DNA from: Chloroflexota bacterium
Lineage (GTDB): Bacteria > Chloroflexota > Limnocylindria > Limnocylindrales > CSP1-4
Direction: 5' to 3'
NCBI GenBank assembly: GCA_034436555.1
Contig: DAOTUU010000033.1
Location: forward strand, 259,720 to 323,719
DNA: 64,000 nucleotides
Position numbers and translations under genes: made by a program. The first letter of the stretch is position 1. The number at the start of each line of letters is the position of its first letter. The notes under the pieces were generated by a model that saw only the letters and a program-made list of their open reading frames with translations, ran no database searches and was not told the DNA's origin. Shown here piece by piece: positions 4,637 through 63,876 of this stretch.

Positions 4637-6562
<1,926 letters not shown>

Positions 6563-6653
6563 GGGGAGCGTGATGGTCCCACATCCGGGCGGTGGACGCG
6601 CGCGGGTCGTATCCTCGTCGGGAACCGATGCCACAGGAGGCCACGTCCGCCAC

Positions 6654-7853
6654 GTGCTGACCCGACGACCGGAGCCGCGTCCCTGGGACGTGATCGCGCT
6701 CGAGGTGCTGCTGACCGTCGCCTGCGCCGTCCAGGTCGGCCTGCTGCTCTGGCTGGCGGTCGCGACGTGGGAGGAGCGGGGCGCGCCGGGCATGGTCATC
6801 GGCGTGCTGGTCATGGTGGCCATGGCGGTGGGCGCCGGCTGGTTCCTGTGGCTCACGGGCGTGAACGGCTGGCTGCTGGCGGGCGCCAGCGGCGTGGCCG
6901 GGATCGAGGTCGCGTTCCTGATGGTGCTGGGCGCGACCGGCCAGGTGCTCGGCGTCGGCGCCGGACCGCTGCTGCTCAGCCTGGGCGCCGCCGTCCTGGG
7001 CGTGTCATGCGGCATCTTCCTGCCGGCGCCGTCGGCGCGGCGATACGCGCCCACCCCGCGCGCCCGCGAGGTCGCGGGCGGCCCGCCCTCGGCACCCCCG
7101 ATCTCGCCGAGCGTCGCCGCGGCGGCCGACCGCTACGCCCGCCCGGTGGTCACGGGCGCGGTCGCGCTGACCGTCGCGGGCGCCCGCCGGATGCGTCGGA
7201 CCGGCGGTCCGTCCGCGGGCCCGGTCGAACCCTCGGTCGATGCCGCCCCCGACCCCGTGCTCCAGCCTCGCCCCGGCACCCCCATCCGGACCATGGCGCC
7301 CGCGGCGGGCACGGTGGACGGGCCGCCGACTGCCGTCGCGGGAAGCGCCTCCAAGGGCTCGACGGCCACCGTGCCGGCCCCGGCCGCGGGGACGCCGGCC
7401 GCGGGCGCGTCCATCGCCGCGAGCCCCGCCACCCCGGCCGCCGGGACGCCGGCCGCCGGGACGCCGGCCGCGGGCAGCGCCACCCGCTCCGGAACCGGGC
7501 GCACCCCCGGCGCGACCCCCGATCCGGGGGCCATCGCGCGCCAGGCGCGCGCCTCCATCGACGCGGAGTTGGCCAAGCCCCGTGGCGCCGGTCGAGGTGA
7601 CGCACCCGCCGGCACCGCGCCGGGATTCCGCCACGTCGACCCGCCCCCGCCCGCCACACGCGTCCCCGCACCATCCGGGGTCGAGCCCCGGTTCAGTCCA
7701 TCGGGTGGGTCGACCCCGCCCCGGCCGCCGACCGGCTCGCCGACGGCCCGCGCCGGGGACGCCCCGCAGCCGTCCGACCCCTCCTCGGTCACGCCGAGCC
7801 TCCGGCAGGTGCCGCCGGCCGATGGCGGCGACGGCACAGGGGTCGGACGGTGA
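6654..7853 (+). CDS. Membrane protein with four predicted TM helices and a long Pro/Ala/Thr/Gly-rich low-complexity C-terminal tail
   Basis: GTG 6654 preceded by AGGAGG at 6635-6640. N-terminal hydrophobic segments ([51 protein letters not shown] ...). Very high GC3. Stop overlaps the next start (GTGA). Confidence 0.5.
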
Positions 7854-13044: not shown

Positions 13045-13245
13045 GGTCCGGCGCGAGGGCCACCGGCGCGTGGGCCACCGGCGCGTGGGCGCGTGGCCCT
13101 CCGCCCGTGCGTGGCCCGCCGCCCGTGCGTGGCGCGCTCCGCCCGTGCCACCACCGGTGGCGAATCTCCACGACTCGTGGAATCTCGCCACGCGTCGTGG
13201 AATCTGTCCACGACTCGTGGAGACCGTCCACGCGCGGCGTCGCTC
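13045..13245. repeat. Intergenic repeat array: 2x CCACCGGCGCGTGGG, 3x CCGCCCGTGCGTGGC, then about 4 tandem ~19-bp units each carrying the palindrome CCACGA-N-TCGTGG
   Basis: Read directly in the 244-bp gap between the convergent aapP and aspS genes. Confidence 0.6.
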
Positions 13246-43999: not shown

Positions 44000-44215
44000 G
44001 GGCAGAGCATGCCGGGCGCCACTTCACCGGGACTCATCCCCGGCTGCACCGTGGATCATCCCCGACTGCACCGGGGCTCATCGGGGTCGGACCGCGGGTC
44101 CGTGGATGAGGACGGCGGCACGGTCCTGTGCCGGGATGGAACAGCCGGCGCCCCTTCGCCAGTCAGACTCTGTGGACGCGATCCTCGCATCACGTCACAC
44201 CGAGGAAGGGGCAGC

Positions 44216-51801: not shown

Positions 51802-53157
51802 TCAGACGGTGGGCACCGTCTCGAGCGCCACGCGGATCCGCTCCTGGGGCAGCTCGAAGTCCTCCAGGCTGCCGTTCAGGTAGCGCTCGTAGGCACTCAG
51901 GTCGAAGTGCCCGTGGCCGCACAGGTTGAACAGGATGACCGGGCTGGTGCCCTCGTCGCGCGCTCGGAGCGCCTCGTCGATGACCGCGCTGACGGCGTGG
52001 GCCGGCTCCGGCGCGGGCAGGATGCCCTCTGCTCGCGCGAAGCGGACACCCGCCTCGAACGTCTTGCGCTGGTGGACCGCACGCGCCTCGATAAGGCCCA
52101 GCTCCTTGGCCAGGCTCACCTGCGGCGACATGCCGTGATAGCGCAGCCCACCCGCGTGGATGGGATCGGGGATGAAGTCATGACCCAGCGTGTGCATCTT
52201 GACCATGGGCGCCATCCTGCCGGTGTCACCGAAGTCGTAGCGATACACGCCGCGCGTCAGCGACGGAGCCGCCTCCGGCTCCACCGCGATGATCCGATAG
52301 TCGGCCTCGCCGCGCAGCTTCTGGCCCAGGAACGGGAAGGTCAGGCCTGCGAAGTTCGAACCGCCACCGGTGCACCCCACGAGGATGTCCGGCTTGTCGC
52401 CGGCCATCGCCATCTGCTCCATCGCCTCCAGGCCGATGACCGTCTGGTGGAGCAGCACGTGGTTGAGCACGGAACCCAGGGCGTACTTGGTGTCGTCCCG
52501 GGTGGCGGCGTCCTCCACGGCCTCGCTGATCGCGATGCCCAGGGAGCCTGGCGAGTCCGGATGCTCCGCGAGGACCGCCCGGCCGTAGTTCGTGGTGGGG
52601 CTGGGGCTCGCCACGACCTCCGCCCCGTACACCTCCATGAGGTTGCGCCGATAGGGCTTCTGGTCGTACGAGGCGCGCACCATGTAGACCTTGACCTCGA
52701 GCCCGAAGATCGCGCCCGCGAGCGCCAGCGAGGTGCCCCACTGGCCAGCCCCGGTCTCCGTGGCGAGGCGCGTCACGCCCTCGGCCTTGTTGAAGAACGC
52801 CTGGGGGATGGCGGTGTTCGGCTTGTGGCTTCCGGCCGGGCTGACGCCCTCGTACTTGTAATAGATGCGGGCGGTGGTGCCCAGCGCGGCCTCCAGGCGG
52901 TGCGCCCGGAACAGCGGCGAGGGGCGGTACATCGAGTACGCCTCGCGGACCGGCTCGGGGATCTCGATCTCCCGTTCCTGGGAGACCTCCTGGAGGATGA
53001 GGCCCATCGGGAACAGCGGCGCGAGGTCGGCGGGGCCGATCGGCTGCCCGGTGCCCGGGTGGAGCGGCGGCGACTGACCGGCCAGGTCCGCGTTGATGTT
53101 GTACCAGGCCTTGGGGATGCGGTCCTCGGGCAGGATGAACTTGGTCTGCTTCGCCAT
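51802..53157 (-). CDS. trpB: Tryptophan synthase beta chain, TrpB2 (long/archaeal-like) type, orphan
   Basis: [21 protein letters not shown] (TrpB2 N-terminal extension), PLP lysine region [38 protein letters not shown] before ATG 53157. No trpA adjacent. Confidence 0.9.
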
Positions 53158-53289
53158 GGGTCTCCTCGACGGGTCGGGCCGGCGTGCGCGGCGCGCCTCG
53201 GCGCGAGTGTACGGACCGCGCCGACGGAGCGTCAAACGCGAACGCGCCCCGGCGACCCGCGTGACGACCGCGCGGCTCAGAGGCTGTGA

Positions 53290-53790
53290 ACAGACCGGCC
53301 GCCGGCCGGGTCCGGCCCGCCCCGGAGTCGCGCCTCGGTGCGCCCCGCGCCGCCCTGCCCGCCGGGTCCGGCCCGCCCCGGAGTCGCGCCTCGGTGTCCG
53401 CCCCGCGCCGCCCTGCCCGGAGTCGCGCCGGGTGTCCGCCCAGCGGCCATGACCGACGCGTCCGGACCCGATCCCGTGGGACGGGCCGCCGAGGGGCCCA
53501 TCCGGACACGCCCGGTCCGATGCGGGCCGCTGAGGGGCCCATCCGGACACGCCCGGTCCGATCCGGTCCGATGAGCGGCCCGGATCGGACGCGCCGGCCC
53601 GGGGCACGTCGGTCGTGTCCGCTCGGCGGCCGGGCGCCCGATGCCCGGCGGCCGGGCGCCCGATGCTCGGCGGGCCGGCCTCGGACATCTGCCGGCGGCT
53701 CCCACCCGCCGCCGACGGCCCGGCCGCCACATACGGCCCCGAGCCCCGTCCCGCGGCGGCTCCCACCCGCCGCCGACGGCGCGGGCGTCA
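53290..53790. repeat. Mosaic of four different tandem duplications in the trpB2 / ABC permease intergenic region
   Basis: ~58-bp unit GGGTCCGGCCCGCCCCGGAGTCGCGCCTCGGTG..CGCCCCGCGCCGCCCTGCCC x2 plus a partial third. GAGGGGCCCATCCGGACACGCCCGGTCCGAT x2. GGCCGGGCGCCCGATGC(C/T)CGGCG x2. CGGCGGCTCCCACCCGCCGCCGACGGC x2. Confidence 0.65.
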
Positions 53791-53847
53791 CATCCGGCCT
53801 GGAGTGCGGGGGCGTCGGTCGGCTCGCCAGCCGCCTTCAGCTCAGAC

Positions 53848-54711
53848 TCAGACCTCGCGGCGCCGGAACAGCACGATCGCGAGCAGCAGGCAGACCGCGA
53901 TCCAGGCCAGCGACCAGATCACCTGTCCCAGCGGGGGCGGCGCGTCCGCGAAGAAGGGGTTCGCGCTCTGTGCCCCTCCCAGGCTCCACGCGGCCATGAT
54001 GGCGAGTGGCGGCTCCAGCGCGAAGATGACGCCCCGCCACAGCAGGTCGGTCGGGACCGCGTATCGCAGCAGGTCGGTGAGCGGCTTGATGGACTCCGCA
54101 TCGAAGGCGGCCGACAGGGACCCCAGCACGCCCCCGAACCAGGAGATCGCGAACAGCACCACGGTGACCGCGCCGGCCGCCACCGCGGGCAGCCGCACGC
54201 CCAGCATCAGCGCCAGCGTCAGCACGACCGCGGACTCCCCGGCGAGGTACGCGAGGGCCGCGACGGGCTCGCCGGGGAAATAGCCCGACACGGCCCGGAC
54301 GGCGAGCAGCGCGAGCACTCCCGAGAGCACGGTGTAGCCCACGATGACGACCATGAGGCCGATCCAGCGCCCCACCACGATGTCCGTGCGACTGGTGGGG
54401 CGGGCGAGCATCGCCAGGATGGTGCCTGACTCCAGGTCCGCCGCGACAGCCGGCGCCGCGAGGAACGCCGCGGACATCGCGAGCACGAAGCTGAACAGGA
54501 ACGCGATGAGGATGAGCACCTGCGACACGCCCAGGCGGATGCTGATCTCGTCGAGGCCGTTCTCGCGCGCGGTGGCCACGAGCTGATCCACGCCCCAGAA
54601 CACGATCGCGGTGCTGGCCAGCGCGAGCAGGAGCAACACGAGGAGCGTCCGCCGCCGGATGGTCTCGCCGATGGTGAGGCCCACGATGGCCCACACCTGC
54701 CGCACGCTCAC
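53848..54711 (-). CDS. ABC-2 type transporter permease
   Basis: GTG 54711 overlaps the ATPase stop (GTGA). Six TM segments. The long N-terminal part of ORF 53848..55035 is Gly/Arg-rich and was rejected. Confidence 0.7.
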   Translation of the reverse strand: MSVRQVWAIVGLTIGETIRRRTLLVLLLLALASTAIVFWGVDQLVATARENGLDEISIRLGVSQVLILIAFLFSFVLAMSAAFLAAPAVAADLESGTILAMLARPTSRTDIVVGRWIGLMVVIVGYTVLSGVLALLAVRAVSGYFPGEPVAALAYLAGESAVVLTLALMLGVRLPAVAAGAVTVVLFAISWFGGVLGSLSAAFDAESIKPLTDLLRYAVPTDLLWRGVIFALEPPLAIMAAWSLGGAQSANPFFADAPPPLGQVIWSLAWIAVCLLLAIVLFRRREV

Positions 54712-57098: not shown

Positions 57099-58901
57099 TC
57101 AGTCGGCGTAGAGGCGCTCCTCGATGAGCTTCTCCTGGACGGTCCGGCCGGCGGAGTCGAAGCAGGAGAACTCGAAGTGCTTCTCGTACTCCAGGTCCAC
57201 CGCGTTCTGGCCACCGCGGTTCTTCTCCACGGTCATGATCACCCAGTCCCGGAAGCGCTGCGCCTGGTACGGGTTGTACTCGATGCTGACCTTGGACACG
57301 ATGGAGTACTTCTCGTTGAGGATGAGGATGATGTCCGCCTCGTAGTTGATGGCGGACGACCCGCGCAGGTGATGGTTGCGCAGGCGAGCCGCCTTGAGGC
57401 CCTCCTTGTCCGCGGCGACGATGCTGATCATCGGCACGTCGTAGGCGAGTGCCACGTCCTTGAGGCCCTGCACCACGAAGGTGACCTTCTCCGTCTCGCT
57501 GGGCGGCTCCGGGATGACCGGCACCTTCTGCATGTAGTCGATGAACACGACCAGCCGCCGGTCACCCGACAGCTGCTTGTATCGCTCCACCAGCTGGCGG
57601 ATGTTCTCGACCGTGCTGGTCGTCTGCGAGCCGCGCAACAGGTACAGGTTCTGCCCGTACCGGCTGATCTTCTCCAGGGCGGGCCGCAGCCTGGGGTTGG
57701 CCCCCAGGTCGGCGCTCTCGCTGCCCTGGGCGAGCCATGTCCCGAGGATCTCCTTGCGCACGTCCGTGAGCTTCACGCCGCCCGTCTTGGCAGGCAGCTG
57801 GTCAAGCGCGGACTCCATCGCGATGACCCGGTTGAGCAGGTACTCCTCGTCATGCTCGAAGCAGATGTAGAGCACGCTCGCCTGTCCGCCCAGCACGATG
57901 TTGCGCGCCATCTGGACGGCCATCGTGGTCTTGCCCGTGCCCTGCGCCCCACCGATGAGCAGCAGCTCACCCGCACGCAGCCCGCCGCCGATGGTCTTGT
58001 CCAGGGGCGTGAAGCCAAGCGGAACCGGCTGGTACTGATCGACCGCACCCACAGCGACCTTCTGGGCGAGCGTCGCGAGGACCTCGCTGGCGCTGCGCGG
58101 TGAGACGAGCGCGGTGTTCGTCTCCACGGTCCAGGCACCCGGACCTGCCTGGACGTGGGGGCGAGCGGGGGCCTGCTGCCCCGTGGTGGGCGTCGGCGGG
58201 GTCGCGCCGTTCGATGCGGGCGCGTTCGATGCGAGCGGCGCCATCGGGTGCGATGCGGGCGCGTTCGATGCGAGCGGCGCCATCGGGTGCGATGCGGGCG
58301 GCGCCATCGGCTGCGGTGCGGGCGCCATCGGGCGCGATGCGGGCGGCGGCGGCTGGATCGACGAGGTGGTCGCCGGCAGCGTCCCGGGTGCGATCGGTCG
58401 GAGCGATGCGGGCGGAGGCGCGACGTCCGCGGCCGGCGACTCGGCCTGCATCGGCTCCGGCTGGCGGGCGGACATCGGCTGCGACGGCGCGGCCCCCTGC
58501 GTCGACGGCGTCGGAGCCTCGATCAGCGTCGGCGCCCCAGTGCCCGCGGCGGATCGAGGCGCGAGAGTCGCGGATGGCGGCGGCGGAGCAGCGGTGGCCG
58601 GCGCGACAGGCGCGACAGGCGCGACAGGCGCGAGCGGCGCCAGGACCGGAGGCTGCGGATTCCACGGACTCGCGGTCAGGACGTGGTCGGTGGTCGCCGA
58701 TGTTGACCCGGGCGGCACCAGGCGCCGCTCCAGGACGGACGGCTGCGGCTGCCCGTCCATCCCCGACGGATCCGGCCACGGATCGCCCGCCACGCCCAGG
58801 CTCGCCCAGTCGATGTCGGGTCCAGGCGCGTCCGGCGCCGGTGCGGACGGCATGACTGATTCCGGCGCGGTCGGCTGGCGTGACCAGCGGCTGATGTTCA
58901 C
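57099..58901 (-). CDS. RecA-superfamily ATPase (KaiC / DnaB-C-terminal-like single domain) with a long Pro/Ala-rich repetitive N-terminal region
   Basis: C-terminal 320 aa: Walker A LLLIGGAQGTGKTTMAVQMA, Walker B RLVVFIDYMQKV, KaiC/DnaB-C fold features. N-terminal 280 aa of low complexity with in-frame tandem repeats (PMAPLASNAPASH x2, LAPVAPVAPVAPA). Start uncertain (GTG 58901 with GGGGA upstream, or ATG 58853). Confidence 0.6.
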   Translation of the reverse strand: MNISRWSRQPTAPESVMPSAPAPDAPGPDIDWASLGVAGDPWPDPSGMDGQPQPSVLERRLVPPGSTSATTDHVLTASPWNPQPPVLAPLAPVAPVAPVAPATAAPPPPSATLAPRSAAGTGAPTLIEAPTPSTQGAAPSQPMSARQPEPMQAESPAADVAPPPASLRPIAPGTLPATTSSIQPPPPASRPMAPAPQPMAPPASHPMAPLASNAPASHPMAPLASNAPASNGATPPTPTTGQQAPARPHVQAGPGAWTVETNTALVSPRSASEVLATLAQKVAVGAVDQYQPVPLGFTPLDKTIGGGLRAGELLLIGGAQGTGKTTMAVQMARNIVLGGQASVLYICFEHDEEYLLNRVIAMESALDQLPAKTGGVKLTDVRKEILGTWLAQGSESADLGANPRLRPALEKISRYGQNLYLLRGSQTTSTVENIRQLVERYKQLSGDRRLVVFIDYMQKVPVIPEPPSETEKVTFVVQGLKDVALAYDVPMISIVAADKEGLKAARLRNHHLRGSSAINYEADIILILNEKYSIVSKVSIEYNPYQAQRFRDWVIMTVEKNRGGQNAVDLEYEKHFEFSCFDSAGRTVQEKLIEERLYAD

Positions 58902-59087
58902 GGCAGGTGATCCCCGGGTCGCCCGTGGTCGGGCGACCACGCTCGCGGGCAACCTATCAGCGGCCGCGCGGTGTCGGCAGCCTTCCGAACCTCCTACGAG
59001 CACTTCCCATCGGTACCAACCGCACGTCCGGACCCGGGTCCCGGGGGATCGCGACGGCGACGGTGCCCCGCATGGCCGCAGGCGTGC

Positions 59088-60473
59088 TCAGCGGGGCATG
59101 TCGGCGAGTGCCTGCCAGTAGCGCGCGATCGTGCGCAGGCCGCCCTCGTAGTTGGCGAGCACCATCTGCTCGTTGGGGGCGTGGGCCTGGTCGTCAGGAT
59201 TGGTGAAGCCAAGCAGCACCACCGGCGCCCCGAGCAGCGTCGCGAAGGACGCTGCGGCGGGGATCGACCCTCCCTCCCGGAGGTAGTACGGACGCTCCCC
59301 GAACACCTCCTCCAGGCAGCGTGCCGCCGCCTGCGTGGCGGGATGGTCGATGGGCGCGAGGGACCACATCCCGTGGTTGAGCGGCGTGACCTCCACCCGC
59401 ACGCCAGGTACCGGCACGGCGAGGATGGCATCCCGGACGCGCTCGAACGTGCGCTCCGGATCCATGTCCGGCACGAGGCGGCAGGAGATCTTGGCGTGGG
59501 CATGCGCCGGGATGATGGTCTTGGAGCCCTCGCCCTGGAACCCGCCCCAGATGCCGTTGACGTCGAGCGTGGGCCGGGCGCCGCGTCGCTCCAGGGGGAT
59601 GAAGTCGGCGTCCCCGAACAGCTCCGACACGCCCAGGCGCGCGACCAGCTCGTCCTCGTCGAGCGGGAGGCGTGCGAACTCGGCGCGCTCGGCGTCTGTC
59701 AGCACCCGCACCTCGTCCAGGAAGCCCGGGACCGTCACCCGGCCGGACGCGTCCTTGAGCGACGCGATGATGCGCGCGAGCGCGATCGCGGGGTTCTGGA
59801 CGTTGCCTCCATACGTGCCCGAGTGGAGGTCCAGGGACGGCCCCGTGACGTCGACCTGGGCGTACATCAGCCCGCGCAACCCGATCGTGATCGCGGGGTG
59901 GTTGCCCTCGAAGAAGCCCGTGTCGCTCACGACCACCACGTCCGCATCCAGGCGGTGCCGATTGGCGGCGAGCCAGGCGTCGAAGTTGACCGACCCCGAC
60001 TCCTCCTCGCCCTCGAACACGTAGCGGACGTTCACCGGCAGCCGACCGTGTGTCGCGAGCCAGGCCCGGGCGGCCCAGAGATGGAGGTGGACCTGACCCT
60101 TGTCATCTGCCGCTCCCCGGGCGAAGATGCGTCCGTCCTCGAGGCGCGGCTCGAACGGCGGTCGGACCCACAGGTCGAGAGGATCCACGGGCTGCACGTC
60201 GTAGTGGCCGTAGACCACCACGGTCGGGGCGCCCGGGGCATGCAGCCAGTCCGCGTAGACCACGGGGTGGCCCGCCGTGGGCGACACCTCCACGTGCTCC
60301 AGCCCCCAGTCCGACAGGCGTGTGGCCACGAACTCGGCGGCGGCGACCATGTCATCACGATGCTCGCTCAGCGCCGAGATGCTGGGGATGCGCAGGAAGT
60401 CAACGTAGTCGTCGAGGCGCTCCTGGGCGGTTGCGGTGAGATACGCCTCGATCGGCGCGAGGACGTCGGACAT
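59088..60473 (-). CDS. M20 family metallopeptidase (dipeptidase / ArgE-DapE-like)
   Basis: HYDVQPVDP, GAADDKGQ, EGEEESGS metal-binding motifs. 461 aa. Confidence 0.85.
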   Translation of the reverse strand: MSDVLAPIEAYLTATAQERLDDYVDFLRIPSISALSEHRDDMVAAAEFVATRLSDWGLEHVEVSPTAGHPVVYADWLHAPGAPTVVVYGHYDVQPVDPLDLWVRPPFEPRLEDGRIFARGAADDKGQVHLHLWAARAWLATHGRLPVNVRYVFEGEEESGSVNFDAWLAANRHRLDADVVVVSDTGFFEGNHPAITIGLRGLMYAQVDVTGPSLDLHSGTYGGNVQNPAIALARIIASLKDASGRVTVPGFLDEVRVLTDAERAEFARLPLDEDELVARLGVSELFGDADFIPLERRGARPTLDVNGIWGGFQGEGSKTIIPAHAHAKISCRLVPDMDPERTFERVRDAILAVPVPGVRVEVTPLNHGMWSLAPIDHPATQAAARCLEEVFGERPYYLREGGSIPAAASFATLLGAPVVLLGFTNPDDQAHAPNEQMVLANYEGGLRTIARYWQALADMPR

Positions 60474-62708: not shown

Positions 62709-62783
62709 TGGTAGCCGAGGGCGGATTTGAACCACCGACCAAGGGCTTATGAGTCCCCTGCTCTACCACTGAGCTACTCGGCC
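62709..62783 (-). tRNA. tRNA with CAU anticodon (tRNA-Met; the elongator vs tRNA-Ile2 lysidine type is not resolved), CCA encoded
   Basis: Minus strand GGCCGAGTAGCTCAGTGGTAGAGCAGGGGACTCATAAGCCCTTGGTCGGTGGTTCAAATCCGCCCTCGGCTACCA. 7-bp acceptor stem, D-arm GCTC/GAGC, anticodon loop CTCATAA, T-arm GGTGG-TTCAAAT-CCGCC. Ends +/-1. Confidence 0.8.
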
Positions 62784-62840: not shown

Positions 62841-63545
62841 CTACTCCACCGTCACCGTGAGCAGCAGCGTCCAGGTCGGCGCGGCGCTCTCGAAGGGTCG
62901 CGCGTACTGGAACGTGACCGTCGTCTCACCGGCGGCGAGGGCGTCGAATGCGAACGCCTGCGCACCGGGTGCGCCGGGCATCGGCGACGCTGCGGGGATG
63001 TCGCTGGTCCCGCTCAGCGCCGTGATGGTGAGGTCGGCGACCGACGGCTCGGCCCAGCTGAACCCGGTGCTCGGGTTGGAGCACAGCTCCACGATGTACC
63101 GACCACCCGCTGGCGCGCTGATCTGGGCCGTCTGCGAGGGCTGTGCCTCGAACGCCGCGCAGTCCAGGGCGATGGCGGCGGGCGCCGCGGAGGCGCTGGG
63201 TGAGGGCGCCTGGGTGGGCTCGGGCGTGACGACCGGCGCAGCCGTGGGCGTGACGACGGGCGTGGCCGTGGGCTCAGGCGTGGGCGCCTGGGTGGGCTCC
63301 GGCGTGGGCTCCGGCGTGGGCGCCTGGGTGGGCTCGGGGGTCGGCGCCTGCGTGGGCTCGGGGGTGACGACCGGAGCGGCCGTGGGCGCCTGGGTGGGCT
63401 CGGGGGTCGGCGCCTGGGTGGGCTCGGGGGTGACGACCGGCGCGGCCGTGGGCGTGACGACGGGCGTGGCAGCCGGCTTGCCCGAGCAGGCGACGAGCAG
63501 CAGCAGGCTCGCGGCGACGATCAGCCGCGAGAGATGGGAGCGCAT
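62841..63545 (-). CDS. Lipoprotein with a TPEPTQAP-repeat linker and a C-terminal chagasin-family (I42) protease-inhibitor domain
   Basis: Lipobox LLLLVAC SG after MRSHLSRLIVAAS. ~110-aa linker of (V)VTPEPTQAPTPEPTQAPTAAP repeats encoded by near-identical DNA tandem repeats 63230-63480. C-terminal NPSTGFSW motif (chagasin NPTTGY/FxW). Confidence 0.7.
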   Translation of the reverse strand: MRSHLSRLIVAASLLLLVACSGKPAATPVVTPTAAPVVTPEPTQAPTPEPTQAPTAAPVVTPEPTQAPTPEPTQAPTPEPTPEPTQAPTPEPTATPVVTPTAAPVVTPEPTQAPSPSASAAPAAIALDCAAFEAQPSQTAQISAPAGGRYIVELCSNPSTGFSWAEPSVADLTITALSGTSDIPAASPMPGAPGAQAFAFDALAAGETTVTFQYARPFESAAPTWTLLLTVTVE

Positions 63546-63876
63546 GGAACCTCCGAGCATGTGGGCGGATCGGGACGCCCACGGACGTCCGGCCCCTGGG
63601 CATGGGTCGACGCCGCACAGCATGCACGCTCGCACGCCGGTCTGCACGGCGCGCGAGGCGCCTCCGGACCGATCGGTCAGACCTGTCAGACTTCATGCGT
63701 GAGACTCATGGGCCACCTGCTCGGAACACTGGGATTCCGCTGGCAGATACGCAGACTGCGGCTCCTCGAGCGACTCCGTGACCTCATCACGCTGGCGCTC
63801 GTGATGGGCAGCGTGGGTGCCGCGATCGGCTACGCACTGGTGCGCCGCGGCGCCACGGAGTCGGACGTGGACGGAT

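Follow-up and report, generated by a model that had tools for sequence, protein, structure and literature searches.

How does a long, GC-rich and repeat-laden spacer come to stand between two bacterial genes, when bacterial genomes are normally compact and deletion-biased? The question is raised by a 64,000-nucleotide stretch of a Chloroflexota genome of the order Limnocylindrales (hereafter the window; 72.6% GC), in which the gene for an ABC-2 family permease and trpB2, the gene for a TrpB-like pyridoxal phosphate enzyme, are separated by a gap of 690 bases (53158-53847) with 81% GC. Four adjacent and distinct tandem arrays are packed into this gap. We judge it on balance likely that the spacer is unconstrained, non-coding DNA that has been inflating by serial microhomology-mediated tandem duplication and that it has no detectable function.

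The arrays were called with Tandem Repeats Finder and with an independent repeat search. In order of window position, the first has a unit of 56-58 bp (53301-53419; 2.1 copies, 95% matches, score 215) and a partial third motif reaching to about 53445; the motif CCGGAGTCGCGCC is present three times in this array, at 53322, 53378 and 53417. It is followed by a 41-bp unit (53482-53581; 2.4 copies, 91-95%, score 165), by a 22-bp unit (53624-53678; 2.5 copies, 93-95% matches, score 94) that contains the 10-bp palindrome CGGGCGCCCG, and by a 61-bp unit (53676-53804; 2.2 copies, 78% matches, score 158), whose best two copies are 88% alike and each copy of which carries the short hairpin CGGCGG-N7-CCGCCG. 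Among 300 dinucleotide-preserving shuffles, only one produced any array with a period of at least 15 and a score of at least 90. The four units show no relatedness to one another. The initial annotation had described four different tandem duplications in series between trpB2 and an ABC-2 permease, a description that is borne out by both searches and by the shuffles for the arrays, and by Pfam matches for the two flanking genes. Its lengths of ~33, ~25 and ~28 bp for three of the units, by contrast, correspond to exact-match cores, the full periods being 41, 22 and 61 bp. The 31-mer that it quoted as duplicated indeed has two occurrences, 41 bp apart.

Two further properties of the arrays stand out. 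All four have fractional copy numbers (2.1-2.5), and thus each includes a partial extra copy, as is expected where duplication runs between flanking repeats. Also, no period among the four is divisible by three, while every array within the low-complexity open reading frames (ORFs) of the window has a period that is (9, 12, 18, 24, 36, 39, 66 and 90).

Comparison with relatives places the extra DNA precisely. The closest trpB2-bearing contigs, L081 and L082, are 92% identical in the trpB2 protein and ~80% identical in DNA, and they share with the window the gene order ABC ATPase, permease, trpB2, beta-propeller gene, 206-aa gene and NfeD. In both, the spacer between the permease gene and trpB2 measures only ~105 bp. 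When L082 and L081 were aligned to the window by blastn, both flanks proved colinear at ~80% identity and homology broke exactly at 53239-53853, a block of 615 bp that replaces 28 bp of the colinear L082. Judged from these alignments, the block is lineage-specific.

The recognizable expression signals of trpB2 lie outside the block. On the minus strand, a promoter with the boxes TTGACG and TACACT separated by 18 nt (53206-53235) is conserved in L081 and L082, is untouched by the insert, and is the sole promoter-like site in the kilobase (0.0 expected in shuffles). The ribosome-binding site GAGGAG (53162-53167, minus strand), located 4 nt before the ATG at 53157, is likewise conserved in both relatives. 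In the two relatives the stop codon of the permease gene also keeps its position. Because the proximal 80 bp with promoter and ribosome-binding site are conserved in this way, the block must sit between this stop codon and the trpB2 -35 box.

A homologous copy elsewhere provides what appears to be a record of one duplication. A scan of metagenome contigs with a 29-mer core of the 41-bp unit identified one contig, L083, on which a TM198-like gene and a Rieske ferredoxin gene are followed by 350 bp of non-coding DNA. The last ~230 bp of this DNA are homologous to window positions 53305-53631, and L083 shares at least 210 bp with the window spacer at 93-95% identity. In the common core (53409-53626), 165 of the 178 aligned bases are identical outside a single large indel, and over 53523-53626 the agreement is 99 of 104. 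The indel is exactly 41 nt, or one unit; the unit is present once in L083 and 2.4 times in the window, a contrast in copy number between copies that reside at different loci.

The single unit of L083 begins with CGGGCCGCTGAGGGGCCC and is followed by CGGGCCGATGACCGGCCC, which together form an imperfect direct repeat (15 of 18 positions) spaced 41 bp apart. Such a repeat is precisely the substrate that slipped-strand mispairing or unequal recombination requires, and the window, with its succession of unit, unit and partial unit, shows the product to be expected. The earlier suggestion that the region marks a replication-slippage or recombination hotspot gains support from this clean 41-nt indel and its flanking imperfect direct repeat. 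Divergence among the copies suggests that the duplications differ in age. Copies in the 61-bp array are now ~80-88% identical and those in the other three arrays ~95%, from which the 61-bp array would be the oldest and the remaining three approximately as old as the split from L083.

The region does not behave as coding DNA. Across 53160-53790, GC content is 0.77-0.88 at all three codon phases and there is no codon periodicity, whereas the flanking genes show values of 0.85-0.98 at one phase and 0.40-0.60 at another. Six-frame translations of the block match no Pfam family at E<=1, and a concatenated six-frame query of 5.8 billion proteins returned nothing at E<=1e-4. Indels relative to L083 are not multiples of three, which counts against a protein-coding gene. 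These results uphold the earlier claim that no coding sequence spans the region; a coding frame conserved in relatives, which would have spoken against that claim, is not to be found either, since the relatives lack the region altogether.

Two candidate frames were considered and rejected. No stop codon interrupts the trpB2 frame over the 203 codons that precede the true ATG, a stretch that runs through the repeats (53158-53766, minus strand). An N-terminal extension of trpB2 up to 53766 was discarded in view of the missing periodicity, the length of close homologues (451-455 aa, named TrpB-like by both NCBI and JGI), the conserved promoter and ribosome-binding site, and the absence of domains or relatives; a search of the 203-codon extension against 1.84 billion representatives gave one marginal match (E 7.8e-4). 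In L083 the 41-nt difference cuts short the only candidate small ORF, which would start at ATG 53448.

Nor does the block resemble a known RNA. Against Rfam 15 it produces nothing at the gathering score, and at E<=10 only noise emerges, the best hit reaching 17 bits where the gathering score is 80. The whole block folds no better than shuffled sequences on either strand (z of -0.97 and -0.01). A known RNA, riboswitch or attenuator was rejected on these two grounds. The search of the region for intrinsic terminators found no terminator-like site, and one candidate, a hairpin followed by UCUGUU at ~53296-53276, was dropped when its stability did not exceed that of shuffles. The only locally significant hairpin is an inverted repeat with 15-nt arms and a 5-nt loop (53556-53590; z about -3 on either strand). 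In the window and in L083 this hairpin has a single uncompensated mismatch, which lies at a different position in each. In the entire window the only Rfam match is a tRNA gene (62712-62783, minus strand).

According to the explanation that we favour, the spacer would have expanded to ~615 bp in the interval from the permease stop codon to a trpB2 promoter that stayed unchanged. Growth would have proceeded as a series of independent local tandem duplications, each probably the result of slippage during replication or of unequal recombination, with short and imperfect direct repeats as the pairing sites, and the duplicated copies would have diverged afterwards. Composition may have helped: a sequence that is close to two-letter (80-85% GC, low complexity) offers more chance direct repeats, which would favour further duplication. 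At 0.81, the spacer is richer in GC than any other clearly non-coding gap of the window (0.66-0.78), and it comes near the GC content of third codon positions. We infer that the block reaches so high a value because it is free of the AT-rich signals to which ordinary spacers are bound, and that it is exposed to the same force that drives synonymous sites above 90% GC. The slippage or unequal-recombination mechanism itself and the selective neutrality of the block are what these patterns suggest, and the block is probably without function.

Inflated spacers of this kind are not confined to the trpB2 locus. When non-periodic arrays with a period of at least 15 and a score of at least 80 were counted, the window yielded 17 per 100 kb; the corresponding densities were 3.7 for a set of 54 Limnocylindrales-like loci and 1.5 for 23 loci of other groups. 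A second inflated spacer in the window (58176-59093; ~920 bp, 76% GC) lies upstream of a DnaB-like/KaiC-like gene and contains arrays with periods of 39, 24, 18 and 9; the orthologous spacer in the related contig L019 measures 275 bp. Its bounds are set by protein homology to L019, which begins at 58151, and by the homology of the upstream gene, which stops at 59094. A 662-codon ORF (57099-59087) would wrongly take in this spacer. L019 in turn carries a 570-bp spacer between DnaB-like and pyrophosphatase genes (2237-2808) with about five different arrays, whose units are unrelated both to those of the block and to those of the orthologous spacers in L012, L025 and L040. We therefore regard the mosaic as an extreme case of a general tendency of the genome and clade rather than as a singular device.

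Several other stretches may be recorded alongside these. A comparable stretch of L019 is found at 885-1159. In the window, an 18-bp unit present 3.1 times stands beside a 20-bp unit present 3.3 times (13091-13232), and a 22-bp unit is present 2.8 times at 44021-44082; both sites occupy ordinary spacers of 210-243 bp, one convergent and one divergent. The motif GAGGCGCGAC was considered as a link between the two inflated spacers and rejected, its 3 occurrences not differing significantly from the 1.5 expected. At 6575-7849 there are 1.3 kb of ~80% GC that are without clear codon periodicity, and the ORF at 6303-7853 (plus strand) would give a protein with several hydrophobic helices and, after them, a tail rich in Pro, Ala and Gly. 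Nested in-frame repeats (63222-63461; periods 12, 24, 36, 66 and 90) lie in an ORF at 62841-63563 (minus strand), which probably encodes a low-complexity repeat protein.

Both genes that border the block have clear Pfam matches. The permease gene (53848-54711, minus strand; Pfam ABC2_membrane_2, E 2.9e-15) is the upstream neighbour and ends with TGA at 53850-53848. Downstream, trpB2 (51802-53157, minus strand; Pfam PALP, E 2.1e-38) has its nearest relatives among genes of uncultured Chloroflexota and Candidatus Limnocylindrales, the best being 88% identical at the amino acid level, which speaks against an actinomycete as the source. Another relative, found in JGI 3300075153 on the contig of P0004, has a trpB2 that is 91% identical and carries flavodoxin-like and CoA-binding genes at the junction between the permease gene and trpB2, showing that this junction is variable. 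Among close relatives it exists in at least three states.

The second locus, beside the Rieske gene, complicates the picture. The window holds no Rieske, SufBD or TM198 gene. The exact permease protein was found in the Logan sample DRR075734 on contig L087, which is 99.9% identical to window positions 57137-53744 over 3.4 kb and ends at 53744, inside the 61-bp array. L087 differs from the window at three places, two of them in the 104 spacer bases that it covers. Essentially the same strain is also represented by L088 and L089, and the public runs concerned are two, DRR075734 and SRR35759037; L088 begins just 42 codons before the end of trpB2.

The same sample that yielded L087 also yielded L085, which carries SufBD, TM198 and Rieske genes. 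Except for an additional Met at its start, its Rieske protein is the same as P0121, which is encoded on an NCBI contig of 177,885 bp, separate from the 346,112-bp contig that encodes the window trpB2 (P0001). From this identity it follows, very probably, that the Rieske locus lies on another contig of the window's own genome. The spacers of L085 and L083 are orthologous, aligning end to end at 78%, and the coding DNA of the two contigs is 93% identical. The L085 spacer and window positions 53431-53453 share the exact 23-mer GGTGTCCGCCCAGCGGCCATGAC, and L085 ends 7 nt later. More distant Rieske loci are without the sequence: the spacer is 48 bp in L084 (86%), and in L086 (82%) only 6 bp lead up to the next gene. 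Related sequence is thus present at two unlinked loci in the species group, for which element copying, spacer gene conversion and rearrangement are candidate causes.

These findings, together with others, weigh against the view that the spacer is neutral DNA expanding where it stands. Pure growth in place does not explain why at least 210 bp at 93-95% identity reside beside a Rieske gene at an unlinked locus. The identity of these non-orthologous copies equals the coding identity of the two organisms (93%), and such a value could reflect constraint, recent transfer or gene conversion. Moreover, the hairpin at 53556-53590 beats shuffled sequence and occurs in both the window and L083 copies.

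The alternative that best accommodates the second locus is a dispersed, non-autonomous mosaic element that moves between intergenic sites of Limnocylindrales and then expands internally. It would be akin to bacterial interspersed mosaic elements (BIMEs), mycobacterial interspersed repetitive units (MIRUs) or miniature inverted-repeat transposable elements (MITEs), and it may serve to stabilize mRNA ends or act as an insulator. Homologous sequence is found both between the permease gene and trpB2 in the window and at the SufBD-TM198-Rieske locus of L083 and L085; L085 and L087 come from one sample, and the L085 Rieske protein maps to a different NCBI contig. Both sites are empty in distant relatives (L081 and L082 for the first, L084 and L086 for the second), both junctions are variable among relatives, and the 15-bp hairpin is conserved.

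However, there is no further copy in the 64-kb window or in ~700 kb of related loci, and a search for dispersed copies in the window, 82-86 related loci, viral contigs, plasmids and phages found none. The boundaries of the insert lack terminal inverted repeats, the internal inverted repeats being 73-88% complementary, and the sole flanking direct repeat, the 6-mer CTGAGC, could be expected by chance. The four units are mutually unrelated, and no transposase or RAYT-like gene (REP-associated tyrosine transposase, where REP denotes repetitive extragenic palindromic) occurs in the ten neighbouring genes scanned. In addition, the Rieske locus of the window's own strain shows 23 nt of exact identity before L085 ends, and a single rearrangement or spacer gene conversion would equally give two contexts. 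We consider a dispersed element possible but doubtful. The initial annotation's proposal of a degenerate repeat-based element accordingly stands only in part: a homologous sequence at a second, unlinked locus speaks for it, while the missing terminal inverted repeats, the want of other copies in the window and the unrelated units speak against it. In the same tentative spirit, the block might belong to an undescribed GC-rich, non-autonomous mosaic family of Limnocylindrales that was copied between the Rieske and permease-trpB2 sites and was then internally duplicated.

The block could instead be a functional regulatory region that holds sites for a trpB2 regulator, a small RNA, or a terminator or insulator between the ABC operon and trpB2. 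Its location is suggestive, since it adjoins the trpB2 -35 box on the upstream side and follows an operon that runs in the same direction; the units include the short palindromes CGGGCGCCCG and CGGCGG-N7-CCGCCG, and the core is conserved at 93-95% between the two contexts. We nevertheless find such a role improbable. Relatives that have the same promoter and gene order have no block, which indicates that it is not needed for trpB2 expression. There is no terminator-like site and no Rfam match, and fold energy equals that of shuffles. With respect to the upstream gene, the block is also oriented one way in L083 and the other way in the window, the hairpin has one non-compensated mismatch in each lineage, and the only candidate small ORF (ATG 53448) is truncated in L083.

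It is likewise improbable that the block descends from inserted genes or a mobile element that decayed at a recombination-prone junction and was later scrambled by duplication. The two extra genes at the same junction in the relative with a 91% identical trpB2 do mark this as a site of DNA gain and loss. However, six-frame translations show neither a Pfam family nor a protein match in two very large collections, tblastx against related loci gives only scattered, short and compositional matches, and no residual codon periodicity is left.

An assembly artefact, in the form of a spurious duplication or a collapsed repeat, is scarcely credible: the source is a contig of a metagenome-assembled genome and short-read contigs do end within the arrays or the element (L087 at 53744, and also L083 and L085), as short-read contigs are expected to do at tandem repeats, but the copies are imperfect (78-95%) rather than identical, and independent short-read assemblies reproduce parts of the sequence, L087 matching 53744-53847 with two differences and L083 matching the core with a different copy number.

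If the spacer is indeed neutral DNA that has been duplicating in place, it has consequences that reach beyond this locus. A free-living soil Chloroflexota lineage that tolerates apparently functionless, GC-rich, duplicating spacers of 0.6-0.9 kb would be a modest counter-example to the compactness of bacterial genomes, and the spacer would document microhomology-mediated duplication cleanly in a natural setting. Practical implications follow as well. The open 203-codon trpB2 frame creates a risk that automatic annotation will assign a false N-terminal extension, short-read assemblies break at such arrays, and the arrays could be used as strain markers for an abundant, uncultured soil lineage. 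Should the dispersed element prove real, it would be the first such repeat family described for Limnocylindrales. A true mosaic family would be a Chloroflexota counterpart of BIME or MIRU that contributes to unusually inflated spacers. A literature search combining Limnocylindria with tandem repeats found no paper.

Among known repeat systems, some are readily set apart from the block. Its copies are contiguous and have no spacers between them, unlike those of a clustered regularly interspaced short palindromic repeat (CRISPR) array. A MITE is likewise a poor fit, because terminal inverted repeats are absent from the boundaries and only the 6-mer CTGAGC flanks the insert, although an empty site is known. 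The likeness to BIMEs is closer in outline, in that the block is a mosaic of different short motifs, some of them palindromic, located in extragenic DNA just after a stop codon. The BIMEs of enterobacteria, however, consist of a defined REP palindromic unit of ~35 bp whose orientation alternates; they number in the hundreds and are associated with RAYT transposases, whereas the block has one significant hairpin (53556-53590), no dispersed copies in the window and a fold stability equal to that of shuffles.

The resemblance is stronger to the intergenic minisatellites of other bacteria. The mycobacterial variable number tandem repeats (VNTRs) based on MIRUs, associated with Supply et al. 1997/2000, are reportedly intergenic minisatellites of high-GC bacteria. 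Like them, the block consists of tandem repeats, here of 22-61 bp, between co-directional genes, with imperfect copies and varying copy number. Slippage or unequal recombination is the accepted cause of repeats of the MIRU-VNTR type. MIRUs constitute one sequence-related family at ~40 loci per genome, often in frame and containing small ORFs coupled to the flanking genes. By comparison, the block has four unrelated units, no period that is a multiple of three and no coupled ORF, and two loci are known for it, with no other in 64 kb.

In the broader sense of a generic intergenic VNTR or minisatellite, the block does qualify: it comprises non-coding, head-to-tail repeats of ~10-100 bp beyond chance, and copy number varies, the 41-bp unit being present 2.4 times in the window and once in L083, albeit at different loci. 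The presumed process behind it also has a ready precedent. Mutation by microhomology-mediated tandem duplication, or by slipped-strand mispairing of short direct repeats, is a general phenomenon, discussed for example in PMC8639346 and PMC6054270. The L083 unit bounded by a short imperfect repeat, the window arrangement of unit, unit and partial unit, and the fractional copies in four of four arrays all resemble its products. Tandem duplications of this sort are usually transient or deleterious and occur singly, whereas in the block four are fixed side by side and have aged, which suggests that there is little or no selection against the extra DNA. We therefore classify the block as an intergenic minisatellite of the VNTR type, probably the outcome of a known kind of process.

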